DNA of 54,654 nt from positions 1 through 54,654 of the forward strand of contig DASUCI010000054.1 in NCBI GenBank assembly GCA_035762825.1, read 5' to 3'. Source of the stretch: Gaiellaceae bacterium (GTDB lineage: Bacteria > Actinomycetota > Thermoleophilia > Gaiellales > Gaiellaceae). Of this stretch, positions 29,260-47,113 are shown piece by piece (position 1 is the stretch's first letter; each line of letters opens with the position of its first letter). The notes beneath the pieces were generated by a model, which saw only the letters and a list, made by a program, of their open reading frames with translations, did not search any database and was not told the DNA's origin. Both the position numbers and the translations under genes were made by a program.

Positions 29260-29275
29260 CCCGTGGAGGCCGAAT

Positions 29276-30701: not shown

Positions 30702-31549
30702 AGGCGGTCGTCCTCGATGGGATCGTGCTCGGCCTGGCCTTCGGACTGCTCGGAGTCGGGATGACGCTCGTCTACGGGCTCGGCGGTGTCATCAACCTCG
30801 CGTACGGCCAGATCGTGATCGCCGCCGCGATCGTCGCCTCATTGGTCATCGAGAGAGGTGAGTCCCAGGCAGTGGCGGCTGGCGTCGGCGTGCTGGCCGC
30901 AGTCGGCCTTAGCGTCCTGCTGGATCTCACCTTGATGCGTCCTGTCTATCGCCAGCACGGCGAAGAGCGGACGCTCTTAGGCCTCCTACTGACGCTCGGT
31001 GCGGCGTTCGTCATCGGGGGCCTCCTCGCCTGGCGCTATCCCGCCGGCGCGTTGTACATCTACGTCGGCGGGGACCCGATCTCGGTCATCGGCGTCCCGA
31101 TGTCCGTGGGCAGCATCTGGGCCTCGGCCATCGCGCTCGTCGTGGCGGCGGTCCTCCTCGTGTTCTTCGGCGCCACCACCTTCGGGCGCGGCGTCCGCTC
31201 CGTGATCCAGGACGAGACGGGCGCGAGGCTCGTCGGCATCAACCCGTCGTTCGTCCGCACGGTCATCTTCGCGCTGAGCGGCGCGCTCGCCGGCGTGGTC
31301 GCCATCGCGCAGTCCATGACCGGGCCGCTGACGGTCAATGCGGGCTTCGAGCTCACGACGTTCGCGCTGATCGTGACCGTCGTCGGAGGCCTCGGGAGTG
31401 TCGCGGGAGCGTTCCTCGCGGGCGTGCTTCTGGGCGTGGTGAACGCGCTGAGCGCCCACTACATCGGGCAGTACATCACCACCATCGTCCTCCTCGGTGC
31501 AGCTGCCCTGACGATCCTCATCCGACCTCGAGGGCTGCTCGGCCGATGA
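30698..31549 (+). CDS. branched-chain-type ABC permease (LivH-like)
   Basis: 283 aa with 8 predicted TM segments (GLGGVINLAYGQ). The start overlaps the upstream stop. Confidence 0.8.
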   Translation: MKAVVLDGIVLGLAFGLLGVGMTLVYGLGGVINLAYGQIVIAAAIVASLVIERGESQAVAAGVGVLAAVGLSVLLDLTLMRPVYRQHGEERTLLGLLLTLGAAFVIGGLLAWRYPAGALYIYVGGDPISVIGVPMSVGSIWASAIALVVAAVLLVFFGATTFGRGVRSVIQDETGARLVGINPSFVRTVIFALSGALAGVVAIAQSMTGPLTVNAGFELTTFALIVTVVGGLGSVAGAFLAGVLLGVVNALSAHYIGQYITTIVLLGAAALTILIRPRGLLGR

Positions 31550-32574
31550 CCGAGACGCGGACGGCGGGCGGCTCGCGGCGGCTCGGGAGTATGGGCTGGG
31601 CGTTCCTGCCCATCGTCGTCACGGCGGCGTTCCTCGCCGTCCTTCCGCCCGTCTGGTTCGGTGACTCGCCGTACACGACGTCGTTGGCCGTCCAGGCGCT
31701 CGTGTTCGCCTCGTACGGCGTGGGCTTCAACCTCATCTTCGGGAGCACGAACCAGCTCTTCCTCTGCGTCGGCGCCCTGGCCGGAGTCGGCGGCTACGGC
31801 GCGGGCATCCTCGCGAACGAAAGCTCGCTACCGATGGCGGCGGGCGTGGCCGTGGGAACGGCGAGCGCGGCGATCGTGGGCGGTCTGCTGAGCTGGATCG
31901 CGGTGCGGCGGTCGCTCGGGATCATCTTCACCGGCATCGTCACGCTCGTCTTCTCGCTCGGGTTCGCGAACCTGCTGCTCGGCCAGCGCGACCTGACGGG
32001 ATCCGAGACGGGTCTCATCGTGGACGGGGTCCCCGCCGAGCTGGCTGACGACAGCGTCGGCGGCTACTACCTCTTCGCGGGTCTCCTCGTCGCGTTCCTG
32101 ATCGTCTTCCGGGCTCTCCAGCTGTCGCACGTCGGCTGGGCGTTCCGCGCCTTGCGCGACGACGAGGTGGCCGCGGAGCTGGCGGGCGTGAACGTCTCCC
32201 GCTACCGGATCTATGCGGCGACCGTGGGCTCGGCGATGATCGGCCTCACCGGCGCTCTCCTCGCCTACAGTGCGGGCTTCATCAGCCCGGCGACGTACAG
32301 CTTCGACCGCGTGGACGTGCGCGTTCTCGTGATGGTCGCGTTCGGAGGTCTCGGTACCCTGCTCGGCCCGGTCATCGGCGCGGGAGTGTTCGCGATCCTG
32401 GACGAGCAGCTGACGGCCAGCCTCGAGCTGCGCGAGGTCCTGTACGGCGCGTTCGTCATCACGATCTTCCTGTTCTTCAGGCGCGGTGTCGTACAGGCGT
32501 TCGTCTCATTCTTCGACCGCTTTGTCCGCTCTGGCCGACGCACCCAGCCAAACGTGCAATCGTCACGAGAGTAG
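31546..32574 (+). CDS. branched-chain-type ABC permease (LivM-like)
   Basis: 342 aa and multi-TM (GFNLIFGSTNQLFLCVGALAGVGGY). The start overlaps the upstream stop. Confidence 0.8.
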   Translation: MTETRTAGGSRRLGSMGWAFLPIVVTAAFLAVLPPVWFGDSPYTTSLAVQALVFASYGVGFNLIFGSTNQLFLCVGALAGVGGYGAGILANESSLPMAAGVAVGTASAAIVGGLLSWIAVRRSLGIIFTGIVTLVFSLGFANLLLGQRDLTGSETGLIVDGVPAELADDSVGGYYLFAGLLVAFLIVFRALQLSHVGWAFRALRDDEVAAELAGVNVSRYRIYAATVGSAMIGLTGALLAYSAGFISPATYSFDRVDVRVLVMVAFGGLGTLLGPVIGAGVFAILDEQLTASLELREVLYGAFVITIFLFFRRGVVQAFVSFFDRFVRSGRRTQPNVQSSRE

Positions 32575-32586: not shown

Positions 32587-33336
32587 GTGCCACGCGGGAA
32601 CCACCCGAACTCACAGACGACGAAGGCGACGCTCGGGCTCCGGGAGCTCCTGCTCAACGGCGCCTTCCAGCCCCGAGAACGTGTTCCCGAGCTGCGCCTG
32701 GTCGAGGAGCTCGGCGTCTCGCGGACGCCACTGCGGATCGCACTCATGACGCTCGAGCACGAAGGGCTCCTCGAAACGCTCCCGGGCGGCGGCTTCGTCG
32801 TGCGCGAGTTCACGCGCAGCGACATCGACGACGCGATCGAGCTGCGCGGCGTGCTCGAGGGCACGGCTGCACGCCTCGCGGCGGAGAGGCTGGACTCGGA
32901 CGACGAGCTCGAGCCCTTGCGGGAGCTGTGCCGGGAGATGGATGGTGTCGTCCGCGCGCCGAGCATCGAGACGTTCATGGAGTACGTCCGCCTGAACGAG
33001 GAGTTCCACCACGGGTTCCGCGACCTGGCGAAGAGCCCGCAGCTCGACCGGACGCTCGAGCACGTGCTCGCCCTCCCCTTCGGGCCGCCGAGCGCCCTGC
33101 TGATGACGGTCCACGCAGCGCTTCCGGAGTCGTGGGAGATCTTCCTGGTCGCCCAGCACCAGCATGTCGCGCTCGTCGAGGCGATCGGACGGGGCGAAGC
33201 CTCGCGGGCGGAGGACATCGCGCGTGAGCACGCACGCATCGCGCGTCGGAACCTCGACATCGCGCTCGAGAACCGGGACCTCCTCGAGCGTCTTCCCGGG
33301 TCGACGCTGCTGCGCCTTCCGGCTGCTGCCTCCTGA
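32587..33336 (+). CDS. GntR family transcriptional regulator (FadR/FCD subfamily)
   Basis: wHTH (ELRLVEELGVSRTPLRIALMTLEHEGLL) plus an all-helical FCD domain (NEEFHHGF...QHQHVALVEAI). GTG lies 13 nt after the permease stop. Confidence 0.85.
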   Translation: MPRGNHPNSQTTKATLGLRELLLNGAFQPRERVPELRLVEELGVSRTPLRIALMTLEHEGLLETLPGGGFVVREFTRSDIDDAIELRGVLEGTAARLAAERLDSDDELEPLRELCREMDGVVRAPSIETFMEYVRLNEEFHHGFRDLAKSPQLDRTLEHVLALPFGPPSALLMTVHAALPESWEIFLVAQHQHVALVEAIGRGEASRAEDIAREHARIARRNLDIALENRDLLERLPGSTLLRLPAAAS

Positions 33337-33341: not shown

Positions 33342-34316
33342 ATGCCGCCCGAGGCCGAGACCGACCGGCTCGAGAGCACTGCGCACGTGAGGCCCATGCG
33401 GGCCGACGATCTCGAGGCTGCTGACCGTGTCCTGAGGATTGCTTTCGGGACGATTCGAGGGCTTCCCGATCCGAGTGCCGCGTTCGGGGACGCGGACTAC
33501 GTGCATACGCGGTTTCGTGCCGCGCCGGAATGTGCCTGGGTGGCCGAGGTCGACGGCGCTGTCGTCGGCTCCGTGTTCGCGGCGCGCTGGGGCTCGTTCG
33601 GCTTCTTCGGACCTCTCAGCGTCGATCCCGGCCTCTGGGATCGCGGGGTCGGGAGTCGATTGCTGCAGCCCGTCCTCGAAGCCTTCGCGAGCTGGGACGT
33701 CCGTCAGGCCGGGCTCTTCACCTTCGCGGACAGCGCGAAGCATCTCGGCCTGTACCAGAAGCACGGCTTCTGGCCGGGACCTCTCACGGCGGTGACCGCG
33801 AAGGCGGTCGGCCCCACGGCGCCGGCCCCGTACGCGCTCGTCGCGAACGAGCTGGAGAACCGGCAGGGCGTCGTGCTCGACGAGATCCGCACCCTGACGG
33901 ATCAGGTCTGCGCCGGGCTCGACCTCGGCCGCGAGATCCTCGCGGTCGACGAGCAGCGGATCGGCGACACCCTTCTCGTGCGGCGCGACGGGACCTTGGA
34001 GGCGTTGGCCGTGTGCCACGCCGGGGCGAGGAGCGAGGCGGGCAGCGGCACCTGCTACGTCAAGTTCGCGGCGGTTCGCCCCGCCGGGGACGCACCGGCG
34101 CGGTTCGAGCGGCTGCTCGACGCCTGCGAGGCGTACGCGGCGGAATCAGGACTGGGCCGTCTCGTCGCGGGTGTGAACACGGGCCGTCTCCACGCGTACC
34201 GCGACCTCCTTGCCCACGGCTTTCGCATCGAGCAGACCGGCGTCTCGATGTGGCTGCACCCCGAGCGCCCGCACTTCCACACGCCTGCGCACTACGTGCT
34301 CGACGACCTCCGCTGA
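33342..34316 (+). CDS. GNAT family N-acetyltransferase, two-domain
   Basis: The N-terminal GNAT core is (VVGSVFAARWGSFGFFGPLSVDPGLWDRGVGSRLL). The C-terminal half is uncharacterised. Confidence 0.6.
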   Translation: MPPEAETDRLESTAHVRPMRADDLEAADRVLRIAFGTIRGLPDPSAAFGDADYVHTRFRAAPECAWVAEVDGAVVGSVFAARWGSFGFFGPLSVDPGLWDRGVGSRLLQPVLEAFASWDVRQAGLFTFADSAKHLGLYQKHGFWPGPLTAVTAKAVGPTAPAPYALVANELENRQGVVLDEIRTLTDQVCAGLDLGREILAVDEQRIGDTLLVRRDGTLEALAVCHAGARSEAGSGTCYVKFAAVRPAGDAPARFERLLDACEAYAAESGLGRLVAGVNTGRLHAYRDLLAHGFRIEQTGVSMWLHPERPHFHTPAHYVLDDLR

Positions 34317-34344
34317 CGGCGCCGGCTTCGGGTCGGCACGAGCC

Positions 34345-35739
34345 TCAGCTCACTGCGGCCTCCGTGCGCCACCCCTCGTGGTACGAGCTGCGTGCGACCT
34401 CGGAGTACGGGCAGGGGCTCACGATGGCGCGGATCTCCACCTGTCGGTGGCGCTCGACCACCGGCTTCGAGGACCCGCCGTCCTCCTCGCCCCAGACGAG
34501 AGTCAGCTCGGCGCCGATCTCCACGTCCACGTCGACCATCGCGAGCGAGAGGTACGAGCGCTCGTTGTAGCTGTACCCGGAGAACGTCGAGACGCCGACC
34601 GGCTCGCCGTCTCGGAGCACCTTGTCGTACGGCCACGTGGAGTAGTTCGAGAGCGGGATGTCGATGTACTTCGCGGGATCCCCCTTCTCGAAGAGCGAGC
34701 CCATGGCGTGCGCGACGTCCTCGCCGTTCCACGCGAGCGTGACCTTCTTCCGGCGCGGCCGGTCGGCCATCTCGAGGAGCGCCTCCCGCCCGACGAAGTC
34801 GTGGTCGAACTTCACGAACGGCCAGTACCCGAGGTCGTGCGGAGTGAGGTAGTAGTCCTCGATGTCGTCGGAGACGAAGCTGCCTCCGAGTGAGCCCGTA
34901 CCCTCGTACCCGTCGGCCGGCAGCCACTCGCGGTAGGCCCTCAGCTCCTCGCCGGTGAAGACGGCCGGGAGCGGGCACGGGATCCACCCCGACTCGAGCG
35001 TGTTGGTCGCGTACACGCGTGAGCCGACCTGGCGCAGCCCGAAGTCCCTGCCGGCCTCGACGATCGCGCCTCTCACGTCCTCACGCTCGGCCCATGGGCC
35101 CCAGAGCTCGAGCCCGGGCACGCCCGACATCCCGTGATGGAGCGCGCGCACCTTCCGCCCGCCGATCGTGAGCTCGCCCATGTTGAAGAACTTGATCTCG
35201 GGGAGGGGCCCGCCGTTCGCTCTCTCCAGCACCTGCATCGCCGTCGGCCCCTGGACCTGGAAGCGGAAGAGCTCGCGCCCGCCCGTCGGGTTGACTGCGG
35301 TTCGCTCGTCCCTCGAGACCTGCACGTCGTAGCCGCCCGTCTCAGCGTGGTACTGCACCCAGTTGTGCGCGGAGGGGCGTCCCACGAGCCGCGCCGTGTG
35401 GTCGTCCAGGTGGAAGAGGATCGCGTCTCCGATGACGTAGCCGTCGGGGTTGCACACGACGAGCTGCTTAGCCTTGTTCACCGCGAAGTTCTCGAAGGTG
35501 TTGACGCCGACATTGGAGAGGAGCTCGATCGTGCCCGGGCCCTCGATCTGGAGGTCCAGCATGTGGTGCGACTGGTCGAAGAGCGCGGACGTCTCACGCC
35601 AGGCCACCTGTTCGTCCCGCCAGTTCGAGAACTCGCTCGGCACCGCCGGGTAGACGTAGGGCCCTATCTGCGAGTTGCGCGCCATCTCCACGGCGCTGCC
35701 AACGGCCTGGAGCTTCTCGTCGAGGTTTCCATACGCCAT
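34345..35739 (-). CDS. tetrahydrofolate-dependent aryl O-demethylase, LigM/DesA-like (GcvT aminomethyltransferase fold)
   Basis: 464 aa, collinear from memory with Sphingobium LigM: VEMARNSQIGPYVYP..PSEFSNWRDEQ.AWR, FRFQVQGP, NTLESGWIPCPLPAVFTGEELRAYREWLPA, FVKFDHDFVGREAL, RKKVTLAWNGEDV, VSPCPYS. Confidence 0.85.
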   Translation of the reverse strand: MAYGNLDEKLQAVGSAVEMARNSQIGPYVYPAVPSEFSNWRDEQVAWRETSALFDQSHHMLDLQIEGPGTIELLSNVGVNTFENFAVNKAKQLVVCNPDGYVIGDAILFHLDDHTARLVGRPSAHNWVQYHAETGGYDVQVSRDERTAVNPTGGRELFRFQVQGPTAMQVLERANGGPLPEIKFFNMGELTIGGRKVRALHHGMSGVPGLELWGPWAEREDVRGAIVEAGRDFGLRQVGSRVYATNTLESGWIPCPLPAVFTGEELRAYREWLPADGYEGTGSLGGSFVSDDIEDYYLTPHDLGYWPFVKFDHDFVGREALLEMADRPRRKKVTLAWNGEDVAHAMGSLFEKGDPAKYIDIPLSNYSTWPYDKVLRDGEPVGVSTFSGYSYNERSYLSLAMVDVDVEIGAELTLVWGEEDGGSSKPVVERHRQVEIRAIVSPCPYSEVARSSYHEGWRTEAAVS

Positions 35740-35781
35740 CTCTGCCAGCCTCCTCTCCGTCGGGGCTTCCGCCCTTGCCGA

Positions 35782-37350
35782 TTATGAGCCGTCCGGTCCG
35801 CCCGCGGTTCCCTGCTCGCCGCGGGCGAGGTGGTCACGACCGAGGAACGTGTTCGCCCAGGCGCTTGTGCCCTGCAGCGCGTTGTCCTTGACGACGACGG
35901 GGCCGTCCAGCATCGACTCCTCCTCGCCGTAGGCCTTCAGTCGCTCGTACGCGTCCGACCAGATGCACTCCGTGTCGTACACCTCGCACAGCCCGTCGCG
36001 CGTCCCGCCGCACGGGCCGTTGCGCTGATTCTTCGCGCACTGCGACTCGGGGCAGACGTATGCGATCTCGGGAAGCGAGCAGTCGCCGCAGTCCTTGCAT
36101 CCGAACAGCGGCACCTTGGCGGTCTGCTCGAGGGCGTGGGCCACCCGGCGAACCGTCTTCGGGGCCTTGTCGATTCCGCTGTAGACACGCCGTCCGGTCT
36201 CGAACAGCGGGGCGTCGCGCGCGAACACCGTGCCGTGCAGGCGACGGCTGAGCCGGTACTTGACGGGAACGCGCAGCTCGGTCCGCCGCCGCCGCTTCGA
36301 CTCGAGGTACGCGGCGTTCACGGCGTCGGTCGAGAGGCCCGTCTCGGGGTCGCGCTCGAAGAAGTGGAACTCCTGGGGGCGCGCGAACTGGACCTCGCGT
36401 GCGAGGTCGCGCCAGTCGCCGGGGGCGAAGGCGTCGGCGCGGTCGATGATCTCGGCGAACGTCTCCGCAGGCATGTGGCCGCCGAGGTAGACGCCGTCGA
36501 AGCCGAGGCCGCGCACGACCGCGAGATGCTTCGAGGCGAGGTCGACGAAGAAGGCGCGGCCCTGGTCCGGGCTGGCGCCGTGCCGCTCCGCGAGCGCGAG
36601 CAGCTCGTCGGACACGAGGATGCCGGGGATGATCCCGCGGTGAAACGCGCGCGCGGCCGTGCGAGAGAGCAGATAGACGTTCCCGACGACGTGCAGGTCC
36701 AGGTCTTCGCGGCGGATCCAGCGGAGGAGCTCGTCGTCCTTGCGCGTGTTCCAGCCTGCCTGGTTGATGACGAAGCGCGCACCTGCGCGGACCTTCTTGC
36801 GCAGCTTGAAGTACTGGGGCATCACCTCGCGCTCGAGCAGCTTGTGGTTCGTGACGACGCAGCCGAGGAAGAAGTCGGTCCGCTCGAGAGGCGTCTCCGG
36901 CGTGCGCGTGTCGGGCAGACCGGCATTCATCTCCGAGAAGAGGCTGATGAGCCCCACCGAGTCGATGTCGAAGACGGGGGCCGCGAGACCTCGATGACCC
37001 ATCACCGGGTAGTCGCCCGACATCGCGAGCACGTTCTGGAAGCCCGCCGAGCTCAGCTGCCAGCCGCGGCTCTCGAGCGCGTTGCGATTCCAGTCCTTGC
37101 AGGCGAGGTGGATGATCACCTCCTGCCCGCGCGAGATGAGGTCGGTTCCGAGCGCGTCAGGCGAGAGCATCGCGTGCCCGCCGGGGTTGTCGGTGATCGA
37201 GAGGACGTCGATCCTCGGGTCGGCGGCGAGATCCCTCGCGAGAGCCAGCACCCGCGCCCCTCCTTCGGAGCTGATCGGGCCGCGGCTCGTGACGAGCTCC
37301 GCGGCCACGACGAAGCCGTCCGGCTGGGCGAGGGCGTCGCGGAAGCGCAC
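35782..37350 (-). CDS. metF: methylenetetrahydrofolate reductase fused to an MTHFR C-terminal (MetV-like, Cys-rich) domain
   Basis: 522 aa. The N-terminal ~300 aa form an MTHFR barrel (SITDNPGG..., LAMSGDYP). The C-terminus is Cys-rich (FGCKDCGDCSLPEIAYVCPESQCAKNQRNGPCGG...C), as in MetV. GTG 37350 lies 4 nt after the upstream stop. Confidence 0.75.
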   Translation of the reverse strand: MRFRDALAQPDGFVVAAELVTSRGPISSEGGARVLALARDLAADPRIDVLSITDNPGGHAMLSPDALGTDLISRGQEVIIHLACKDWNRNALESRGWQLSSAGFQNVLAMSGDYPVMGHRGLAAPVFDIDSVGLISLFSEMNAGLPDTRTPETPLERTDFFLGCVVTNHKLLEREVMPQYFKLRKKVRAGARFVINQAGWNTRKDDELLRWIRREDLDLHVVGNVYLLSRTAARAFHRGIIPGILVSDELLALAERHGASPDQGRAFFVDLASKHLAVVRGLGFDGVYLGGHMPAETFAEIIDRADAFAPGDWRDLAREVQFARPQEFHFFERDPETGLSTDAVNAAYLESKRRRRTELRVPVKYRLSRRLHGTVFARDAPLFETGRRVYSGIDKAPKTVRRVAHALEQTAKVPLFGCKDCGDCSLPEIAYVCPESQCAKNQRNGPCGGTRDGLCEVYDTECIWSDAYERLKAYGEEESMLDGPVVVKDNALQGTSAWANTFLGRDHLARGEQGTAGGPDGS

Positions 37351-37354
37351 GTCG

Positions 37355-38311
37355 TCAGCCCTCTCTGCCGACGTCGGGCGTTCCGTATGTGTGGAAGCTC
37401 TCGATCGTCTGCACGCCCCAGTACTGGCCCCGCGCGCGCTCTGCGGGGGTCCACGTGATGGGCTCGAAGTCCGGGTCGTACACGAAGTAGCCCCCGGTCG
37501 TGACCTCGATCCGGTTGCCTCCGGGCTCGAAGCCGTACAGGAAGAACCCTTGCGCGACTCCGTGTTTCGACGGTGCCGCTTCGATCGGGACGTCCGCGTC
37601 GACGAAGAGGTCCGCGGCCCGCAGGCACTCCTCGCGCGTGTCGACCCAGAAGGCGAGGTGGTGGAGCCGTCCCGTCGCGCCGTGGGCGTCCGCGACGTAG
37701 ATGAGCTCGTGCGCCGCGATCGTGAGGCTCATCCAGGCACCGGTCTCGGTTCCGTCGTCGAGCTCGATCCGCTCGTACAGGCGGTAACCGAGCACGTTCC
37801 TTGCGAACGTGCTGTTCGCGCGGACATCGGCCGCCAGCAGGTTCACGTGGTCGAGCCGCTTGACCGCCGCTCCCCTGCCGAGGTAGCGCTGTGGCTGATT
37901 CCTCCAGGACGGCCGCAGGTGCTTGGGCGGCTCGTAGCGCTCGGCCTCGTAATAGAGCTCGAAGACGTGGCCGTCGGGGTCCGTGAAGCGGTATGCCCGG
38001 CCGTGGCCTACGTCTCCTTCGATCCATCCGAGCCCGAGCCCCGTCGCCTCGACGGCCGCGACCCGGCGGTCGAGCGCCTCGGGGCTCCATGCCCGCAGCG
38101 CGACGTGCCCGAGCCCCGCCTGCGACGACTCCGTGAGCTTCAGGCTGTAGCGGAGGTAGTCGCCCCAGCCCCGGAGGAAGACGGACTGCCCGTCGCGGGC
38201 CTCTTCCTCCATGCCGAGCACGTCGGCGAAGAAGCGGAGGCTCGCCTCGGGCTTCGGGGTGAGGAGCTCCGCATGGCCGATCCGGGCGAGATCGTGGATC
38301 GGCTCGCTCAT
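37355..38311 (-). CDS. type I (VOC, two-domain, XylE-like) extradiol ring-cleavage dioxygenase
   Basis: 318 aa. Candidate 2-His-1-carboxylate ligands lie in RLDHVNL, RLHHLAFW and FEPGGNRIEV, spaced as in catechol 2,3-dioxygenases. ATG overlaps the upstream stop (ATGA). Confidence 0.8.
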   Translation of the reverse strand: MSEPIHDLARIGHAELLTPKPEASLRFFADVLGMEEEARDGQSVFLRGWGDYLRYSLKLTESSQAGLGHVALRAWSPEALDRRVAAVEATGLGLGWIEGDVGHGRAYRFTDPDGHVFELYYEAERYEPPKHLRPSWRNQPQRYLGRGAAVKRLDHVNLLAADVRANSTFARNVLGYRLYERIELDDGTETGAWMSLTIAAHELIYVADAHGATGRLHHLAFWVDTREECLRAADLFVDADVPIEAAPSKHGVAQGFFLYGFEPGGNRIEVTTGGYFVYDPDFEPITWTPAERARGQYWGVQTIESFHTYGTPDVGREG

Positions 38312-38925
38312 TGCTCGACGAGCTGCCGCAGGCCGTCGAGGTCGTACGAGCGCTCGCCGGCCTCGAGCTTCGCTCGCTTCTCGCGCTCGCGCGCCTCGCG
38401 CGCGAGGCCAGCCTTCAGAACCTCGTCGATCCGCTCCCGCTCGACGACGACTGCTCCGTCCGCGTCGAGCACGACCACGTCTCCCTGACGGATCGTCGCC
38501 CCGGCGACCTCGACGGGCTCGCCGATCACGCCCGGAGCCTGCTTCTCGGCTCCGGTGACGCGGACGTACCGCGCCCAGATCGGCAACCCGACAGCTCGGA
38601 GCTCGTCGAGGTCGCGCACCGCAGCGTCCACGAGCAGCGCCGCGAGGCCTGCGACCTTCGCCTGCGTCGCAAGCAGCTCGCCGACGAGTGCGACCGGCCT
38701 CGGCTCGGGCATCGTGAGGACGAGCACCTCGCCAGGCTCCGCCTCGGCCACGGCCGCGTGGACCATGAGGTTGTCGTCCTGGCCGCAGCGCACGGTCCGC
38801 GCCGCGCCGGCCGCACGCGAGCCCGGCACGACCTGGAGCAGCGGCACGTCGACGACGCGGGCGCGGCCCGCCGCCTCGTGCACCGTGGCGGTTCCCAGCC
38901 GGGCGAGCTCGGTGAATTCCGTCAC
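38308..38925 (-). CDS. RraA-fold class II aldolase, LigK/GalC-like (4-carboxy-4-hydroxy-2-oxoadipate aldolase / oxaloacetate decarboxylase)
   Basis: 205 aa (TATVHEAAG..., DDNLMVHAAV..AEPGEVLVL, GELLATQAKVAGLAALLVDAAVRD...GLPIWAR, GDVVVLDADGAVVV). GTG 38925 overlaps the upstream stop (GTGA). Confidence 0.7.
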   Translation of the reverse strand: MTEFTELARLGTATVHEAAGRARVVDVPLLQVVPGSRAAGAARTVRCGQDDNLMVHAAVAEAEPGEVLVLTMPEPRPVALVGELLATQAKVAGLAALLVDAAVRDLDELRAVGLPIWARYVRVTGAEKQAPGVIGEPVEVAGATIRQGDVVVLDADGAVVVERERIDEVLKAGLAREAREREKRAKLEAGERSYDLDGLRQLVEQ

Positions 38926-39635
38926 AGGGCGCTCACCACCTGCGGCGTGACGCGCTGGAACGCCTCGGCGTGGCGAATCGCCGCGTTCCCCGACGAGCGC
39001 CGGGCGTGGTTGGCGCGCTGCTCGGCGCGCTGCGAGTAGTACGTGTGGAGGTACGACTGCGCCTTCATCTCCGCCATCGCGGCGTTCTTCTGCTCGATCA
39101 CCGGCGTGATGTCCACGAAGGTCGTGGGCACGAAGTTGCACAGCTCGGGCTGGTGCGGCTCGAAGAGCAGCAGCTCCGGCGGCTCGACCGTCTCGAACGC
39201 GCTCGGGACGCCCGCGCCGGCGGCGAGTGCGCGAGCCTTCTCGACGGCGAAGAACGCGGCTGCGTGGTCCGGGTTGAACGGGTCGCGATCGGTGTGTGTG
39301 AGGACCACGTCGGGAGCGAACGCGCGGATCCCGTCGGCGATCGCACCGAGTGCTTCGCTGTCGACCTCGAGAGGGTAGTCCCCGAGATCGAGGCACTCGA
39401 ACTCGGCACCGAGCGCCGCAGCCGCCCGCTCCGCCTCGCCGTGGCGGATCTCCTTCACGCGCTCGACGGTCTGTCCCTCCTTCTTCCAGAGCTCGCCGGA
39501 CTCCCCGCGCTCGCCGTAGGAGAGCGCGAGCACGCGCGCCGTGCCGCCGTTCGTCGTCGCGACTGCGATCGCGCCACCGGCCCGCCAGACGAAGTCGGCG
39601 GAGTGCGCGCCGATCACGAGGAGCTTGCGGCTCAC
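38922..39635 (-). CDS. PIG-L/LmbE family protein, GalB-like candidate 4-oxalomesaconate hydratase
   Basis: 237 aa (LLVIGAHSADFVWRAGGAIA, LSYGERGES, DPFNPDH, FEPHQPE). GTG 39635 overlaps the upstream stop (GTGA). Confidence 0.65.
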   Translation of the reverse strand: MSRKLLVIGAHSADFVWRAGGAIAVATTNGGTARVLALSYGERGESGELWKKEGQTVERVKEIRHGEAERAAAALGAEFECLDLGDYPLEVDSEALGAIADGIRAFAPDVVLTHTDRDPFNPDHAAAFFAVEKARALAAGAGVPSAFETVEPPELLLFEPHQPELCNFVPTTFVDITPVIEQKNAAMAEMKAQSYLHTYYSQRAEQRANHARRSSGNAAIRHAEAFQRVTPQVVSAL

Positions 39636-40558
39636 GAGGCACCGGCCAGGCGTCGCGACTGCCCCACGATCAGCTCGCGCACCTCGTCCTCGTCGAACCG
39701 TGCGCCGAGCAGGCGGTCGGCCCAGAGCGCGAGCCCGTCCTCGACCGGCGGATAGTCGGGGTTCCCGCAGTCGCTCGAGAAGAGCGAGTGCTCGACGCCG
39801 ACCGCGCGCACGCCGTCGAAGACGTGCTCCCACTCGGTCTTTCCGGACAGCGGCGTGCTGAGGCACCGCTCGAGCAGGCACCCGCGCTCCGCGAGAGTGC
39901 GTTGATCGTCGAGCGAGAAGTTCTGACAGGGGAACTCCGGGTGCGTGACGACGATGCGTGCCACGCCTTCCTCGAGCGCTGCGTCGACGACCGCGAAGGT
40001 GTCGTCGCGACCGAGGTGGCCCGTGGCGAGTACGAGGTCGTGGCGTGCGATCGCGCGCAGCACGTCACGCGCCTCGGGAAGAAGGCGCCCGTCGGGATCG
40101 GTGACGTGTACCGCGTCGATGCTGAGACCCAGGCCCCGCAGCTCGTGCTGGAGCTGGGCCCACTGCGGCACCTTGTCTCCGTCCCTCGGCTGGGTCCTCC
40201 CGGCCGTCTCCGCGGGGGAGTCGACCGTCGGCATCCAGACGATCGCGGCGCCCTCGCGCGCTGCGATCTCGACGGCGAGGGCATTCATGCCGCCGACGGC
40301 CCAGTTCAGCGTGAGCGTGCCGACCACCTGCACGTCGGCGACGAGACTCGAGACGACCTGCGCGCGCTCGGCGGTCGAGGTGTAGTGCGACTTCAGGGCA
40401 AAGCCCGCGAGCCCGAGCTCGGCGAAGCGCTGCGCGAGCGTGCGGTCGTCGATCCGTCGCCGGGGCACGTCCGGCGCGACGTGGACGTGCAGGTCGTAGG
40501 CGCCCTCCACGAGCACCCGGGCCCGTTCGCTCGGAGAGGTCGCGACGACCTGGGTCAC
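39632..40558 (-). CDS. amidohydrolase-superfamily-like TIM-barrel protein (DxHxH), function unassigned
   Basis: 308 aa with N-terminal YDLHVHVAPD, then KSHY, ATGH and SDCG as candidate metal-ligand positions. GTG 40558 overlaps the upstream stop (GTGA). Confidence 0.5.
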   Translation of the reverse strand: MTQVVATSPSERARVLVEGAYDLHVHVAPDVPRRRIDDRTLAQRFAELGLAGFALKSHYTSTAERAQVVSSLVADVQVVGTLTLNWAVGGMNALAVEIAAREGAAIVWMPTVDSPAETAGRTQPRDGDKVPQWAQLQHELRGLGLSIDAVHVTDPDGRLLPEARDVLRAIARHDLVLATGHLGRDDTFAVVDAALEEGVARIVVTHPEFPCQNFSLDDQRTLAERGCLLERCLSTPLSGKTEWEHVFDGVRAVGVEHSLFSSDCGNPDYPPVEDGLALWADRLLGARFDEDEVRELIVGQSRRLAGAS

Positions 40559-41352
40559 GATCGCACCCCGCGTCCGTGCGAAGCGAGCTCGGCCAGCTGC
40601 GCGGCGCTGGCGGATGCGATGCGCGGCTCGACTCCGAGCTCGACCAGCAGGTCGCGCGCGGCTTCCATCTCGTCGACGCGACGCGCGGCGTGCGTCCGGC
40701 TACCCTCGAGTGCCCGCTCGAGATACGGCCGGCCGATCATTCCGGCGATCTCCTTCGCGAGCCAGTCCGCGTGGCCCGCGATCTCCGCCGCCTGCATGCT
40801 CTCGACCACGGCGGCGGCGAGCCCCTTCATGAACACCGAGCGCACCAGCTTGAGCGCAGCTGCGTCCCCGGCGTGCTCCGAGAGCACCTCGACGGGCATC
40901 CCGAGGGGCTCGAACAGCCCGGCGAACGCCGCCGCACCCGGCCCCGACGCGAGCACGGGAGCGCGCAGCCCGTGCTGCGGGAGCGGCCCGAGGAGGGCGA
41001 CGTCGACGAACGGCAGCGCAGCCTCCCCGACGAGCGCCGCGAGCTCGCGCTTCAGGTCCGGCGAGGCGGTGTTCAGGTCCGCGTAGATCGTCGACGCCGA
41101 GAGCACGGGGAGGACTTGGGCCGCCGCGTCGAGCGCGGCCCGCGCGCCGTTCACGCTCAACACGACGTCGCTGCCGGCTGCTGCCGAGCCGGCATCGGAA
41201 GCCCTCAAGATCGACGGGACGTCACGGTCGGGATCGGGGTCGTAGCCGCGCACCTCCACACCGGCGGCGGCGAGGTCGGCCGCGAGGCGGCTCCCGGCCT
41301 CACCGAGACCGAGCACCGCGACGGCCCGTGCGCTTCGATCCACGGCTGACAT
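40555..41352 (-). CDS. NAD(P)-dependent dehydrogenase, 6-phosphogluconate-dehydrogenase-type Rossmann domain with DUF1932-like C-terminus
   Basis: 265 aa starting MSAVDRSARAVAVLGLGEAGSRLAADL (GxGxxG). The C-terminal helical domain is (KLVRSVFMKGLAA). The upstream 327 aa of ORF 40555..42333 are shadow sequence antisense to the GntR and ligM-like genes. Confidence 0.6.
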   Translation of the reverse strand: MSAVDRSARAVAVLGLGEAGSRLAADLAAAGVEVRGYDPDPDRDVPSILRASDAGSAAAGSDVVLSVNGARAALDAAAQVLPVLSASTIYADLNTASPDLKRELAALVGEAALPFVDVALLGPLPQHGLRAPVLASGPGAAAFAGLFEPLGMPVEVLSEHAGDAAALKLVRSVFMKGLAAAVVESMQAAEIAGHADWLAKEIAGMIGRPYLERALEGSRTHAARRVDEMEAARDLLVELGVEPRIASASAAQLAELASHGRGVRS

Positions 41353-41365
41353 GAAAACAGAATTG

Positions 41366-41394
41366 TTGACGATTTTCGCGACATTCCGCAGAAT
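41366..41394 (+). promoter_or_regulatory. sigma-70-like promoter for the GntR/ligM-like-2 unit
   Basis: TTGACG (41366..41371), a 17-nt spacer, then CAGAAT (41389..41394). The ATG at 41407 is only 12 nt downstream, so the leader is very short or absent. The 54-nt spacer is AT-rich. Confidence 0.45.
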
Positions 41395-41406
41395 CGGTGG
41401 CGCACG

Positions 41407-42069
41407 ATGGCCGTCACCTCGAGCTACGACGCCCTCCGCGCGGCCATCGTCCGCGGCGACATCGCGCCCGACGCGCGCCTCGTCGAAGCCGACCTCTCGA
41501 CGACGTTCGCGATGTCGCGCGGGGCCGTGCGCACCGCGCTCATCCGCCTCGAGCAGGACGGGCTCGTCGTCCGCGAGCCTCATCGGGGCGCACGCGTTCG
41601 GCGCGTCTCGGACGCCGAGGCGGTCGAGATCCTGCAAGCTCGCGCGGTTCTCGAAGGCCTCGCCGTCCGGCAGGCCGCCGACCGCATCGACCATGCGGGC
41701 GCCGCCCGTCTCCAGAGCTGCATCGCCCGTCAACGCGAGCTTCTCGAGAACGGCGACCTCCTCGGCGCGTCGGAGGTGAACGCCGAGCTGCACGCCACGC
41801 TGCTCGAGCTCTCCGGCCACGCGACCGCTATGCGTCTCATCGAGAGCCTGAACGCCCAGACGGTCCGCTACCAGTACCGCACGATCCTCATCCCGGGGCG
41901 TCCGGGCGCGTCCGTGGCTGAGCACGCTGCGATCGTCGAGGCGGTGACCGCCGGGAACGAGGACGAGGCGGAGCTGGCGATGCGGAGACATCTCCTCAAC
42001 GTCGCCGAGGCAGTGCGGGGTGGACGGCTGCCGGGCGGTATCGACAATGCGAGCCGCGGTGTCCTCTAG
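41407..42069 (+). CDS. GntR family transcriptional regulator (FadR/FCD subfamily)
   Basis: wHTH (EADLSTTFAMSRGAVRTALIRLEQDGLV) plus an FCD domain (NAELHATLLEL...EHAAIVEAV). Confidence 0.85.
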   Translation: MAVTSSYDALRAAIVRGDIAPDARLVEADLSTTFAMSRGAVRTALIRLEQDGLVVREPHRGARVRRVSDAEAVEILQARAVLEGLAVRQAADRIDHAGAARLQSCIARQRELLENGDLLGASEVNAELHATLLELSGHATAMRLIESLNAQTVRYQYRTILIPGRPGASVAEHAAIVEAVTAGNEDEAELAMRRHLLNVAEAVRGGRLPGGIDNASRGVL

Positions 42070-43456
42070 TCCTAGCCTCGAAGATCTGCTGGCCACGGCC
42101 GGGAACCCGGTCGAGCTGCTCCGCAACTCGCCGGCGGGCCCCAACGTGTACCCGGTCGTGCCTCCGGAGTTCACGAACTGGCGCGACGAGCAGAGGGCGT
42201 GGCAGACGACGTGCGTCCTCTTCAACCTCTCGTACCACATGAACGACCTGGCGGTCGAGGGCCCGGATGCCCTCGAGCTCCTCTCCCGGCTCGCCGTCAA
42301 CAGCTTCGACGGATTCGCGGGCGATCGTGCCAAGCACTACGTGCCGTGCAGCCCCGACGGATATGTGATCGGCGACGTCATTCTCTTCGCGCTGGGCGAG
42401 AACCGATTCAACCTCGTCGGCCGCGCCCCGGCCCTCAGCTGGATCATGTACCACGCGGAGACGGGCGGCTACGACGTCGCGGTCGAGCTCGACGTGAGGT
42501 CTGCGCTGCGCACCGACGGCCGCAGGAGGTCGTATCGCTTCCAGGTGCAAGGCCCCACCGCGATGCAGGTGATCGAGAAGGCGCTCGGCGGCACTCCGCC
42601 CGAGCTCGAGTTCTTCCATACGACGCCGGTGACCATCGCCGGCACGACCGCCGGCGCCTTGCGGCACGGCATGGTCGGACAACCGGGCTGGGAGCTCTTC
42701 GGGCCCTGGGACGACGGGGAGGCCGTGCACGAGGCGCTCGTCGCGGCCGGGGAGGAGTCCGGGCTCCGGCTCGCGGGTGCACGCGCGTACTCGTCCAACA
42801 CGCTCGAGTCCGGCTGGATCCCCTCGCCGCTTCCGGCCGTGTACTCCGGTGAGAGGATGAAGGCCTACCGCGAATGGCTGCCCGCGGCGGGGTACGAGGG
42901 GTCCGCGTCCATCGGCGGCAGCTTCGTCTCCGCGGACATCGAGGACTACTACTTCACTCCCTGGGACCTCGGATACGGGAGCTACGTCAAGTTCGACCAC
43001 GACTTCATCGGGCGCGAGGCGCTGGAGGCGATGGCGAAGGGAGAGCACCGCCGGAAGGTCACGCTGGCGCTCGACGACGAGGACGTCACCCGCACGATCG
43101 CAACCATGTTCGAGCAGGACGAGCGTGCGAAGTTCATCGACTGGCCGTCGGCGGTGTACTCGATGCATCAGTACGACCGGGTGACCGTGGAGGGGGAGAC
43201 CGTCGGCGTCTCGACCTGGATCGGCTACAGCGCGAACGAGGGCAAGCTGCTCACGCTCGCCGTGCTGGACGCCGAGCATGCCGAGCCCGGCACCGACGTG
43301 ACGTTCGTCTGGGGAGAGGAGGACGGCGGCACGGCCAAGCCCACAGTGGAGCCACACGTGCAGGTCGAGCTCGGCGCCGTGGTCAGCCCGGCGCCCTACG
43401 TGGAAGCCGTACGCAGGTCCTACGCACCCGGCGGCTGGCGCGCACAACATCCCTAG
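42047..43456 (+). CDS. tetrahydrofolate-dependent aryl O-demethylase, LigM/DesA-like, paralogue 2
   Basis: 469 aa from MRAAVSSSPSLEDLL. It shares the blocks of the 34345..35739 product (ELLRNSPAGPNVYPVVPPEFTNWRDEQRAWQ, YRFQVQGPTAMQVIEK, NTLESGWIPSPLPAVYSGERMKAYREWLPA, VKFDHDFIGREALEAM, RKVTLA). It overlaps the GntR end by 23 nt. Confidence 0.85.
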   Translation: MRAAVSSSPSLEDLLATAGNPVELLRNSPAGPNVYPVVPPEFTNWRDEQRAWQTTCVLFNLSYHMNDLAVEGPDALELLSRLAVNSFDGFAGDRAKHYVPCSPDGYVIGDVILFALGENRFNLVGRAPALSWIMYHAETGGYDVAVELDVRSALRTDGRRRSYRFQVQGPTAMQVIEKALGGTPPELEFFHTTPVTIAGTTAGALRHGMVGQPGWELFGPWDDGEAVHEALVAAGEESGLRLAGARAYSSNTLESGWIPSPLPAVYSGERMKAYREWLPAAGYEGSASIGGSFVSADIEDYYFTPWDLGYGSYVKFDHDFIGREALEAMAKGEHRRKVTLALDDEDVTRTIATMFEQDERAKFIDWPSAVYSMHQYDRVTVEGETVGVSTWIGYSANEGKLLTLAVLDAEHAEPGTDVTFVWGEEDGGTAKPTVEPHVQVELGAVVSPAPYVEAVRRSYAPGGWRAQHP

Positions 43457-43473: not shown

Positions 43474-44292
43474 CTACCAGAGCTCGAGGCGGCCGTCCTT
43501 GAGGACGGCGGTGCCCTCTGGGTTGACCGACTCGAAACCGAATCCAGCGTCGACGTTCCAGACGCGCGTCGTGACGGTCTCGCCGGGGAAGAGCGGTGCG
43601 GAGAAGCGCACGGCGATGCGCTTCACCGCTCGCGGATTCGCGACGCCCGCCGCCCGGAGAACGGCCCTCCCCGCGAACGCCATGGTGCAAAGCCCGTGCA
43701 CGATCCGTCCGGGGAGCCCGACCCCGTGGGCGAACTCGTCGTCGAGGTGGATCGCGAAGTCGTCTCCCGAAGCCGCCGCGTAGCGGGCGGTCTGATCCTC
43801 CGCGACGAGGTACGTGATCTCGGCGACCGGGTCGCCGTCCGCCTCGAGTCGGTGGTCGGGCGCTCGCTCGCCGACTCCGTCGCCTGCCTGCACGCCGCGG
43901 AAGAACTCCGTCACGTACTGCTCGTTCACGAGCTCGCCGCTCTCATCCCGCGTCTCCGTCTTGATGACGAGCGACGTCCCGTTCGGGCGCGGGAGCAGGG
44001 CGACCGGTGTCGCACGCGATACGACCTGCATGCCGGCCTCGAGCGGCCGGTGGAGCAGCATGTCCTGCTCGTAGTGCACCACGAAGCGGCGAATATCGCC
44101 GGACGCGACCGCCTCGGACGCAGGCGCGATCGCGCTCCGTACCGGAACGATCGCGAAGACCGGCCCTCCGGCGACGTCGTCCGTCGCCTCCGCGTACGCT
44201 TGCATCGCCGCGTCGGTGACCTCGTACGGGTAGTCGTCCCCGGCGCCTCCGATCGCAGCCACGTCGAAGGTCAGGGCACTCGTCTCGGGCAC
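43474..44292 (-). CDS. double hot-dog MaoC-like (R)-specific enoyl-CoA hydratase
   Basis: 272 aa from GVG 44292 region start VPETSALTF (GTG 44292). There is an N-terminal hot-dog domain and a C-terminal MaoC motif (YAAASGDDFAIHLDDEFAHGVGLPGRIVHG). The upstream 88 aa of the ORF lie in low-GC intergenic DNA. Confidence 0.75.
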   Translation of the reverse strand: MPETSALTFDVAAIGGAGDDYPYEVTDAAMQAYAEATDDVAGGPVFAIVPVRSAIAPASEAVASGDIRRFVVHYEQDMLLHRPLEAGMQVVSRATPVALLPRPNGTSLVIKTETRDESGELVNEQYVTEFFRGVQAGDGVGERAPDHRLEADGDPVAEITYLVAEDQTARYAAASGDDFAIHLDDEFAHGVGLPGRIVHGLCTMAFAGRAVLRAAGVANPRAVKRIAVRFSAPLFPGETVTTRVWNVDAGFGFESVNPEGTAVLKDGRLELW

Positions 44293-44296
44293 GCGT

Positions 44297-44311
44297 TTCA
44301 GGCTACCTGAT
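44297..44311. promoter_or_regulatory. operator palindrome TTCAGG-N3-CCTGAT (site 1)
   Basis: TTCAGGCTACCTGAT lies 5 nt upstream of the MaoC-like GTG, in the divergent region shared with the SBP gene. Confidence 0.6.
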
Positions 44312-44345
44312 AACCGGCAAAAGGTTTCAGCCTCTGGACAGTAGT

Positions 44346-44360
44346 TACAGGTTCCCTTAA
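44346..44360. promoter_or_regulatory. degenerate second operator copy (site 1b)
   Basis: TACAGGTTCCCTTAA matches 10 of the 12 half-site positions, in the same intergenic region. Confidence 0.35.
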
Positions 44361-44412
44361 ACTCGACCTCGTTGAGGCGACGCTGTCTCATCGATACCGA
44401 AGGGAGCCCTTC

Positions 44413-45594: not shown

Positions 45595-45643
45595 CGATCA
45601 TGCGAGCGCCGCAGACGCTCGTCGTCCGGCGGCAGCGGCGCTC

Positions 45644-47059: not shown

Positions 47060-47084
47060 GCTTCGCGCGTGAATCTCAGGGTGA

Positions 47085-47113
47085 TTGACAGGTAGCCTGA
47101 AATCTTCGATACT
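47085..47113 (+). promoter_or_regulatory. promoter with embedded operator (site 2)
   Basis: TTGACA (47085..47090), a 17-nt spacer, then GATACT (47108..47113). The spacer carries GACAGGTAGCCTGAA (47087..47101), the reverse complement of TTCAGGCTACCTGTC. Confidence 0.55.

Follow-up and report, generated by a model that had tools for sequence, protein, structure and literature searches.

The closest described counterparts of the locus considered here, a seven-gene operon (g1–g7) on the minus strand of a 54,654-nucleotide contig of a Gaiellaceae bacterium (GenBank assembly GCA_035762825.1, contig DASUCI010000054.1; this whole stretch is hereafter called the window), are bacterial meta-cleavage pathways for aromatic acids. 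In Sphingobium sp. SYK-6, the protocatechuate 4,5 pathway (LigAB, LigC, LigI, LigU, LigJ, and LigK) proceeds through extradiol cleavage, hemiacetal oxidation, lactone hydrolysis, hydration, and aldol cleavage to pyruvate and oxaloacetate. Pseudomonas putida KT2440 degrades gallate through GalA, GalD, GalB, and GalC. Pseudomonas sp. NGC7 (VanA1B1, MgaAB, MgaC, and MgaD, with GalD, GalB, and GalC) uses a linear pathway with a hydrolase for 4-carboxy-2-hydroxy-6-methoxy-6-oxohexa-2,4-dienoate (CHMOD) and a SnoaL-type tautomerase, MgaD being the proposed tautomerase of 4-carboxy-2-hydroxymuconate (CHMA), while CHMOD also converts spontaneously to the lactone 2-pyrone-4,6-dicarboxylate (PDC) (PMC12314914). 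Catechol meta-cleavage by XylE/DmpB offers a further comparison at the ring-cleaving step.

We lean towards reading the operon, together with a divergent GntR regulator gene and a divergent DesA-type gene, as a unit for the catabolism of methoxylated aromatic acids derived from lignin. The sequence of steps proposed for it is that of SYK-6, with which it would also share the RraA-like aldolase family, the tetrahydrofolate (THF)-dependent O-demethylases LigM and DesA, and an MTHFR partner. However, the dioxygenase is of type I (vicinal oxygen chelate, VOC) and not of type II/III like LigAB, the dehydrogenase belongs to NAD_binding_2/DUF1932 rather than to Gfo/Idh/MocA, the candidate hydrolase belongs to DUF6282 rather than to Amidohydro_2 (within the same superfamily), and the hydratase has the PIG-L fold of GalB in place of LigJ; LigU has no counterpart, and where SYK-6 has LigM–MetF–LigH, MetF is here fused to a MetV-type domain and FTHFS (LigH) is not in the operon. 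The likeness to the KT2440 gallate cluster lies in a hydratase about 50% identical to GalB, a GalC/LigK-type aldolase, a four-gene core, and the same predicted end products, whereas GalA is LigB-type, GalD (PrpF family) is absent here, the gal cluster contains nothing corresponding to DUF6282 or DUF1932, and the regulator is a GntR/FCD protein and not the LysR-type GalR. With NGC7, the locus would share the entry of syringate ring-fission products into GalB/GalC, a hydrolase step before GalB, and a GntR-type regulator, and one related locus carries an MgaD-like SnoaL_4 gene as NGC7 does; by contrast, O-demethylation in NGC7 relies on the Rieske enzyme VanAB instead of THF-dependent LigM/DesA, MgaAB is LigAB-like, MgaC is an α/β hydrolase, and there is no dehydrogenase. 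XylE/DmpB and the dioxygenase of the window share fold, iron ligands, and catalytic residues, but the downstream genes for catechol are absent here, and the enzyme falls in a distinct clade with an Arg-rich loop and has as partners homologs of a hydratase of 4-oxalomesaconate (OMA) and an aldolase of CHA (4-carboxy-4-hydroxy-2-oxoadipate).

In the proposed pathway (features in Table 1), DesA would convert syringate to 3-O-methylgallate, and LigM (g7) would convert vanillate to protocatechuate and 3-O-methylgallate to gallate; the methyl groups from both enzymes would be passed to THF, and the MetF–MetV-type g6 would return 5-methyl-THF to the folate pool. The dioxygenase g5 would open the ring adjacent to the 4-hydroxyl group, yielding 4-carboxy-2-hydroxymuconate semialdehyde (CHMS) from protocatechuate, OMA from gallate, and the methyl ester CHMOD from 3-O-methylgallate. 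The dehydrogenase g1 would be needed for protocatechuate only, oxidizing the cyclic CHMS hemiacetal to PDC in the role of LigC, a step that gallate and 3-O-methylgallate would skip. The DUF6282 protein g2, in the role of LigI, would hydrolyze PDC, and possibly CHMOD, to OMA/CHMA, which g3 would hydrate to CHA and g4 would cleave to pyruvate and oxaloacetate. The overall type of pathway is predicted from the gene families with fairly high confidence, while for the individual roles of g1 and g2 we put the chances at about even; the substrates named for g5, g1, and g2 are those that we infer.

Table 1. Features of the window around the operon, with coordinates on the forward strand
Feature	Position	Strand	Product length	Family or content
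g1	40555..41352	-	265 aa	NAD(P)-dependent dehydrogenase, NAD_binding_2 + DUF1932
g2	39632..40558	-	308 aa	DUF6282
g3	38922..39635	-	237 aa	PIG-L, GalB-type
g4	38308..38925	-	205 aa	RraA-like
g5	37355..38311	-	318 aa	two-domain Glyoxalase/VOC dioxygenase
g6	35782..37350	-	522 aa	MTHFR + DUF5981 (MetV-type C-terminal domain)
g7	34345..35739	-	464 aa	GCV_T, LigM-type
Divergent intergenic region	41353..41406			between g1 and GntR gene; 54 bp, AT-rich against ~70% GC
GntR/FCD regulator gene	41407..42069	+	220 aa	PF00392 + PF07729; divergent from g1
DesA-type gene	42020..43456	+	478 aa (longest ORF)	divergent from operon
Ortho (β-ketoadipate) operon, complete-looking	21546-27755	-		PobA-like FAD monooxygenase, PcaD-like α/β hydrolase, PcaB-like Lyase_1 protein, PcaG, PcaH, two CoA-transferase subunits
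Second ABC system (left flank)	27946-32574			
Second GntR regulator (left flank)	32587-33336			
GNAT protein (left flank)	33342-34316			
Right flank	43474-52707			MaoC-type hydratase (-), Peripla_BP_6 binding protein, AMP-binding CoA ligase, hydrolase-like protein, MarR regulator, two ABC ATPases, fused permease

Inspection of open reading frames (ORFs) and start codons bore out the seven co-directional minus-strand genes, running from 41352 to 34345, that a sequence-only reading of the window had described. Overlaps of 4 nt occur at g1/g2, g2/g3, g3/g4, and g4/g5; g5 and g6 are spaced by 4 nt and g6 and g7 by 42 nt, with a GGAGAGGAGG ribosome-binding site inside the latter gap, and we infer co-transcription of g1–g7. 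All seven family assignments of that reading stood after Pfam and NCBIfam profile searches, and it was also right that the families of LigAB/GalA/DesB, LigC, and LigI/LigJ are missing: the Pfam families LigB, LigA, Gfo/Idh/MocA, Amidohydro_2, and PrpF gave no match among the seven operon products.

The firmest anchors of the pathway are g3 and g4. The PIG-L domain of g3 (PF02585, 78.9 bits) places it in a fold shared with deacetylases, yet its best match in the PDB is 5cgz, the solved 4-oxalomesaconate hydratase GalB of P. putida (2.3e-57, ~50% identity over 232 residues), while the second-best match is at 3.8e-6. The N-terminal metal motif AHSADFVWRAGGAIA (AHSAD; AHxxD type) is identical between g3 and 5cgz, and the deacetylase models score far below their cut-offs on g3 (BshB1, 58 bits against 182; MshB, 19 bits against 224). 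It thus groups with GalB and not with the MshB/LmbE deacetylases (the sequence-only reading had named the latter grouping, like one of g4 with the RraA regulators, as refuting its hypothesis), and is predicted to be a GalB-type (PIG-L fold) hydratase of 4-oxalomesaconate/2-keto-4-carboxy-3-hexenedioate (KCH). The RraA-like domain of g4 (PF03737, 116 bits) matches the HMG/CHA aldolase 3noj (HMG, 4-hydroxy-4-methyl-2-oxoglutarate) at 3.4e-39 with ~42% identity, whereas RraA structures match at 1e-8 or weaker and the models of RraA regulators score 33–67 bits. The segment 'VDAAVRD' of g4 aligns with 'VDAGVRD' of 3noj, thereby keeping 'VRD', which we take to hold the active-site Arg-Asp pair. Rather than with the non-catalytic RraA regulators, g4 groups with a catalytic aldolase; it is a probable divergent member of the HMG/CHA aldolases (LigK, GalC, and PcmE), its predicted type being an RraA-like class II CHA/HMG aldolase and oxaloacetate decarboxylase. 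The 5cgz and 3noj matches support the proposal of the sequence-only reading that a GalB-like and LigK-like pair carries out the last two steps of the pathway.

The ring-opening enzyme g5 contains two copies of PF00903 and matches PDB entry 9wgj at 3e-122, a Geobacillus zalihae protein (P0241) that is 56% identical to it. The literature search found no paper on 9wgj or on the G. zalihae dioxygenase; the deposit suggests that the Geobacillus enzyme is under study. Both the two-domain fold and the residues are those of a type I (VOC) Fe(II) extradiol dioxygenase, with a 2-His-1-carboxylate site and catalytic His, His, and Tyr: alignment with XylE shows H155, H218, and E269 kept as iron ligands and H201, H250, and Y259 kept as catalytic residues, their XylE counterparts presumably being H153, H214, and E265 and H199, H246, and Y255. 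The clade of g5 is distinguished by an Arg-rich C-terminal loop, ER(A/K/R)(R/K)GQxWG…FHT(Y/H)G, whose aligned counterpart in homoprotocatechuate 2,3-dioxygenase is the R292-R293 loop and which is missing in the catechol-specific XylE and AphC. We take the R292-R293 loop to help bind the substrate carboxylate; the alignment is a lead, not proof, that g5 may accept a carboxylated catechol, and g5 is proposed to be a protocatechuate 4,5- and/or gallate/3-O-methylgallate ring-cleaving enzyme. Public records label relatives of g5 'catechol 2,3-dioxygenase'. Among the operon products, however, no catechol meta-pathway partner was found (2-hydroxymuconate semialdehyde dehydrogenase or hydrolase, 2-oxopent-4-enoate hydratase, or HOA aldolase), and because no such genes accompany g5, that label is unlikely to describe it. 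As a separate observation, the His at residue 201 of g5 (XylE His199; window ~37709-37711) is replaced by Tyr in most clade members, with the motif NK(S/T)YD, including the 9wgj protein (loci compared: L081, L084, L085, L090, L093, L087, and L088), while the Gaiellaceae-type enzymes (window, L086, and L094) keep His201 within the motif IAAHEL; Tyr in place of this second-sphere acid/base His is unusual among extradiol dioxygenases.

The g2 product matches PF19799 (DUF6282) at 7.6e-62 and no other Pfam family, and carries the motif D22-L-H24-V-H26. Nothing was returned for it by the NCBIfam profiles or by a sequence search of the PDB, and the literature search found no paper on DUF6282, a family of ~2,900 representative clusters at 50% identity. 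Its AlphaFold model, built from a 48-sequence alignment (pLDDT 91.7, pTM 0.91), is a (β/α)8 barrel of the amidohydrolase-superfamily kind, its HxH falling at strand 1 and an Asp at strand 8, and Foldseek searches with the model returned enzymes of this superfamily only (TM-score ~0.55–0.6, identity ≤17%), including dihydroorotase, PTER-type lactonases, TatD, and the putative PDC hydrolase 2ffi. In the alignment, H24 and H26 are nearly invariant, and H58, H181, H206, D263, R34, R65, R101, and R184 are invariant, a residue pattern that would suit a metal-dependent hydrolase acting on a polycarboxylate. The modeled fold points to the same superfamily as LigI but a different family, so the wording of the sequence-only reading, that the genes employ different folds from the known enzymes, fails for g2 and LigI. 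Membership in Amidohydro_2 itself (PF04909) was tried and rejected, as a comparison of the DUF6282 profile with a LigI-like protein in hhalign yielded a probability of 8.8% and only a weak local match at strand 8. The g2 product is proposed to be the hydrolase that makes OMA/CHMA from PDC (a lactone) and/or CHMOD (a methyl ester); alternatively, it could act as an OMA isomerase.

In every context examined, the DUF6282 gene lies immediately upstream of the PIG-L gene. Proteins in which DUF6282 seems to be joined to GntR, DUF1932, or the dioxygenase (P0048, P0365, P0367, P0408, and P0458) look like frameshifts or merged calls of overlapping genes and were not counted as evidence. The metagenomic protein P0363 (616 aa) appears to be a real fusion, the N-terminal half of which resembles by eye an HpcH/HpaI-type aldolase and the remainder of which is a DUF6282 domain sharing 53% identity with g2. 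A distant DUF6282 paralog in Roseomonas marmotae (L095, 4165-5873) is flanked on one side by a gene annotated as 'aldolase/citrate lyase family protein' and on the other by TctC and PrpD genes. Taken broadly, DUF6282 appears to be linked to polycarboxylate and aldolase pathways.

For g1, Pfam reports PF03446 (7e-9) and PF09130, i.e., DUF1932 (1.5e-8); its closest solved structures (3qsg, 4ezb, and 1i36) are all uncharacterized, and the literature search on DUF1932 found no relevant paper, the two matches concerning unrelated topics. The LigC/LigI route, which runs from a hemiacetal through a lactone to an open-chain acid, calls for an alcohol-type dehydrogenase and then a lactonase, whereas oxidation of the aldehyde to the acid would instead require an aldehyde dehydrogenase. 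Two clusters on alphaproteobacterial plasmids bear on the place of DUF1932 in this scheme. Plasmid pRo-1 of Roseomonas gilardii has a DUF1932 gene that shares an overlap with an Amidohydro_2 gene resembling LigI-type lactone hydrolases, in a cluster that also has LigA, a LigB-type dioxygenase, LigK, VanAB, and a g5-like dioxygenase, with no Gfo/Idh/MocA (LigC family) gene in view. In Methylobacterium currus, the DUF1932 gene stands directly 5' of a g5-like dioxygenase gene, and an Amidohydro_2 gene and ligK lie close by; the neighbors of this ligK included no LigU or LigI gene usable as a seed. The DUF1932 gene likewise adjoins a g5-like dioxygenase gene directly in L093 and L100. DUF1932 thus occupies the position expected of LigC, the Amidohydro_2–DUF1932 pair of Roseomonas paralleling the DUF1932–DUF6282 pair of the window, and g1 is proposed to be a CHMS-hemiacetal dehydrogenase in the place of LigC. 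Its likeness to LigC is in proposed function only, since g1 lacks the Gfo/Idh/MocA fold. Homologs of g1 that are 52–56% identical occur within the modules of Thermus oshimai, L093, and L094, and the Meiothermus module also holds a DUF1932 gene.

The O-demethylation genes would supply the entry to this route. The g7 product scored 665.9 bits on the LigM model NF047885 (cut-off 580) and 679.8 bits on the DesA model NF047633, below its 800-bit cut-off, and is predicted to be a LigM-type THF-dependent vanillate/3-O-methylgallate O-demethylase. The divergent gene scored 802.9 bits on NF047633, above that cut-off, and is a predicted DesA-type THF-dependent syringate O-demethylase. The first 50 nt of its longest ORF (42020-42069) fall within the 3' end of the GntR gene; because the match to the model begins at ORF residue 19, the start of DesA probably lies a few codons further downstream, e.g., at the ATG at 42047. 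The g6 product matches PF02219 (MTHFR) at 34 bits (cut-off 24) and PF12225 at 89 bits (cut-off 23), and its MTHFR part matches NCBIfam PRK08645 at 95 bits; at the domain level, it is a predicted MetF–MetV-type fusion with the Cys-rich DUF5981, proposed to recycle the 5-methyl-THF formed by the O-demethylases. The g6 position looks like an interchangeable module for methyl-THF recycling. Locus L056, which lacks the fusion, has a short MetF-like gene (~270 aa, ~13160-14000) between its dioxygenase and ligM genes.

Conservation of the block was surveyed in the loci around g2 of 80 species-level Gaiellaceae genomes. The g3 gene follows g2 in 79 of the 80 loci, g4 and g5 are each found in 75, and g1 precedes g2 in 68. 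The complete g1–g5 set occurs in the order of the window in 66 genomes, and 57 of these 66 also have a LigM-type gene within 9 kb (57 of all 80 loci). Individually, a LigM-type gene lies ≤9 kb downstream in 64/80 loci, the MetF–MetV fusion is present in 44/80, and a DesA-type gene lies upstream in 40/80. The conservation in related genomes that the sequence-only reading had proposed to survey is thus evident for g1–g5, and the arrangement is not due to chance. A Gaiellaceae-like copy of the locus, 73% identical in g2, lies on a contig labeled as a Verrucomicrobiota metagenome-assembled genome (L076), which may reflect a binning error or horizontal transfer.

Outside the Gaiellaceae, 11 contexts had enough flanking sequence around a DUF6282 gene of the g2 subfamily (43–62% identity); a plasmid copy in Alicyclobacillus dauci was excluded, its module being broken off at the end of the record. 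A GalB-type gene directly follows the DUF6282 gene in all 11, an RraA-type gene comes next in the ten intact contexts (that of L086 is split across two frames), and a g5-type dioxygenase gene lies within ~7 kb of DUF6282 in all 11. The Thermus oshimai JL-2 plasmid carries dioxygenase, GntR, DUF6282, PIG-L, aldolase, and DUF1932 genes adjoining an annotated 4-hydroxybenzoate 3-monooxygenase gene, and Meiothermus sp. QL-1 has a single same-strand run of ABC transporter, Rieske dioxygenase, PobA-like monooxygenase, dioxygenase, GntR, DUF6282, PIG-L, aldolase, and DUF1932 genes, in which the PobA-like gene is directly upstream of the dioxygenase gene and DUF1932 ends the run. The full set of G. 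zalihae is accompanied by a major facilitator superfamily transporter and a feruloyl-type esterase; L094 has g1–g5 in exactly the order of the window, with a tannase gene 6 kb from the module; and in L093 and L100, a dioxygenase–DUF1932 pair adjoins GntR, DUF6282, PIG-L, and aldolase genes. DUF1932 is lacking in Thermomicrobium (MTHFR, FTHFS, LigM-like, DUF6282, PIG-L, aldolase, and dioxygenase genes), in L085, L086, and L101, which have the four-gene core, and in T. caldilimi, where insertion sequences interrupt the cluster. Because DUF1932 is present in only 6 of the 11 contexts, among them both clusters with an adjoining PobA-like gene (T. oshimai and Meiothermus), the invariant core is taken to be the dioxygenase, DUF6282, GalB, and aldolase genes, with the dehydrogenase as an accessory. 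The module families are clustered together in at least four phyla beyond Actinomycetota, e.g., in Thermus, Meiothermus, Geobacillus, and Thermomicrobium, and also on unassigned metagenome contigs, which likewise speaks against a chance arrangement. No PrpF-type (LigU/GalD) isomerase was found in the operon or in the related contexts listed with Pfam families. In the dehydrogenase-free cluster of L086, a SnoaL_4 gene stands directly 3' of the g5-type dioxygenase gene (12285-13091).

The PobA-like neighbors in Thermus and Meiothermus and the LigM/MetF/FTHFS genes in Thermomicrobium support a catabolic unit of this kind, since enzymes that produce protocatechuate or gallate there adjoin the module. 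Several points nevertheless weigh against the pathway as drawn. The g5 product passes the catechol 2,3-dioxygenase equivalog TIGR03211, if marginally (330.6 against 320.2 bits), and we know of no type I extradiol enzyme for protocatechuate 4,5-cleavage or gallate cleavage. Foldseek does not favor LigI-like proteins for g2, with 2ffi at rank 9, and g4 falls slightly below the NCBIfam aldolase cut-off (PRK09262, 166.1 against 179 bits) and scores 149.6 bits on TIGR02798, whose cut-off is 304.5. The absence of g1 from 5 of the 11 non-Gaiellaceae contexts implies that it is not essential to the core, and in clusters without g1, a PDC hydrolase would be useful only if PDC arises from the cleavage of 3-O-methylgallate or gallate. 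A LigU/GalD (PrpF) isomerase, required in the canonical pathways, is not encoded; the one-to-one mapping of five genes onto five steps that the sequence-only reading had drawn up is supported by the family evidence and the co-occurrence across phyla but omits the OMA isomerase step. The complete ortho route in the window (PobA-like and PcaHG) already offers protocatechuate another fate, and the functions assigned to the module members are all predictions from sequence.

The question of the isomerase leads to the alternative that survives best, though we regard it as unlikely: a gallate-only route mirroring GalA-GalD-GalB-GalC, in which g5 would convert gallate to OMA, DUF6282 would be the isomerase of OMA to KCH/enol in the role of GalD/LigU, and DUF1932 would be an add-on. 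The four genes of the core (dioxygenase, DUF6282, PIG-L, and RraA) map one-to-one on GalA, GalD, GalB, and GalC, and the constant position of DUF6282 directly upstream of the GalB-type gene, together with the lack of a PrpF-type isomerase in any examined context, is what such a route would predict; the amidohydrolase superfamily does include one isomerase, uronate isomerase, although metal-ligand-type residues as complete as those of g2 are more usual in hydrolases. DesA and LigM in the window would yield gallate from syringate, with a separate ortho route for protocatechuate, and the tannase gene near the L094 module fits as well. Yet g1 and g2 are joined by a 4-nt overlap, g1 occurs in 68/80 Gaiellaceae loci, the route contains no redox step to account for the pairing of DUF1932 with g5-like dioxygenase and LigI-like lactonase genes, and the PobA-like genes within or beside the Meiothermus and Thermus clusters make protocatechuate, not gallate.

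Rather less probable again as the whole account, but compatible with the pathway that we favor, is a linear 3-O-methylgallate route like the MgaAB-MgaC-(MgaD)-GalB-GalC route of NGC7, in which g5 would form CHMOD and DUF6282 would be a CHMOD methyl-esterase releasing methanol and CHMA. DesA of the window would provide the 3-O-methylgallate, but the LigM of the operon would take it on to gallate; the SnoaL_4 gene after the dioxygenase gene of L086 belongs to the same Pfam family as MgaD, but the window has no SnoaL gene; and clusters without g1 would still require a hydrolase, but MgaC and DesC, the CHMOD hydrolases known so far, have the α/β hydrolase fold and are not amidohydrolases, and g1 and the PobA-linked clusters would be left unexplained. 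The default database reading, with no pathway at all (g5 a catechol/alkylcatechol 2,3-dioxygenase, g3 a PIG-L deacetylase, g4 an RraA-like regulator or unrelated protein, and the clustering with O-demethylases incidental), accords with the score of g5 above the TIGR03211 cut-off, with the public names of its relatives, and with ~50% identical g5 homologs in module-less clusters, e.g., in Alicyclobacillus acidoterrestris, but is very improbable given an operon without 2-hydroxymuconate-semialdehyde dehydrogenase/hydrolase, OEH hydratase, or HOA aldolase, a g3 that is ~50% identical to GalB and scores well under the deacetylase cut-offs, a g4 that matches a catalytic aldolase and not RraA, and a gene set conserved over five phyla.

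Returning to the catabolic unit proposed above, the choice among gallate, 3-O-methylgallate, and protocatechuate as the main substrate is not settled by sequence alone. Because the window holds a full ortho route, the meta set may here serve mainly syringyl units, in line with the sequence-only reading; the tight coupling of g1 and g2 argues that protocatechuate would also be a substrate.

The GntR/FCD protein, a probable repressor of the operon, belongs to the conserved module: in Thermus and L085, the gene directly upstream of DUF6282 encodes a GntR protein ~52% identical to it, and GntR/FCD genes hold the same position in T. caldilimi, L093, G. zalihae, and Meiothermus. The divergent region between it and g1 is the presumed promoter/operator region. 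A weak promoter-like site on the + strand at 41366-41394 (TTGACG-17-CAGAAT) is the sole σ70-like match within 33900-42200; inspection by eye of the 54 bp for an inverted repeat gave only a weak palindrome (8 of 12), and the promoter/terminator scan found no terminator after g7.

The window has a G+C content of ~70%, and its closest relatives are genomes of uncultured soil Gaiellaceae (class Thermoleophilia). The pcaHG genes, placed about 8 kb away by the sequence-only reading, occupy 25160-26597, leaving 7.7 kb between them and the end of the operon, and the ortho and meta operons give protocatechuate two possible fates inside 20 kb. The right flank looks like a set for the uptake and activation of hydroxycinnamates/aromatic acids. 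Upstream of the catabolic island are genes of aromatic amino-acid biosynthesis, namely, a chorismate-binding enzyme (8550-9791), prephenate dehydratase (10641-11507), and prephenate dehydrogenase with an ACT domain (13006-14094), and a PQQ β-propeller dehydrogenase is encoded at 6236-7762.

The sequence-only reading had regarded this gene combination as uncharacterized, and the literature searched agrees: no description of the module was found in searches on DUF6282, on 9wgj, on type I enzymes with gallate or protocatechuate, on Thermus and protocatechuate, or on Gaiellaceae/Thermoleophilia. The pathway logic is already known from SYK-6 and KT2440, and there is nothing unusual in GalB, the aldolase, LigM, and DesA, which belong, or nearly belong, to known families. 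What would be new, as judged from the gene families, is a type I dioxygenase at ring opening, DUF1932 in place of LigC, and DUF6282 in place of LigI or possibly GalD, conserved as a unit across several phyla. Whether this amounts to an undescribed version of protocatechuate/gallate meta-cleavage, widespread in Actinomycetota, Deinococcota, Bacillota, and Chloroflexota, is for us an evenly balanced judgment; in such a version, 9wgj would represent the type I dioxygenase, DUF1932 would be the CHMS dehydrogenase, DUF6282 would be the PDC/CHMOD hydrolase and possibly the stand-in for the OMA isomerase, and the module would be the main route of vanillate/syringate mineralization in the abundant uncultured Gaiellaceae of soils.

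If this is true, DUF6282 and DUF1932, two domains of unknown function, would receive their first assigned roles, and three consecutive steps of a textbook pathway would constitute a clean case of non-orthologous replacement. Annotation based on LigAB/LigC/LigI/LigJ profiles would score such organisms as lacking protocatechuate/gallate meta-cleavage, and metagenomic surveys would underestimate the turnover of lignin aromatics by Gaiellaceae and several thermophiles. The versions in Thermus, Meiothermus, and Geobacillus could, in addition, give heat-stable enzymes to make or consume PDC, a bioplastic monomer.

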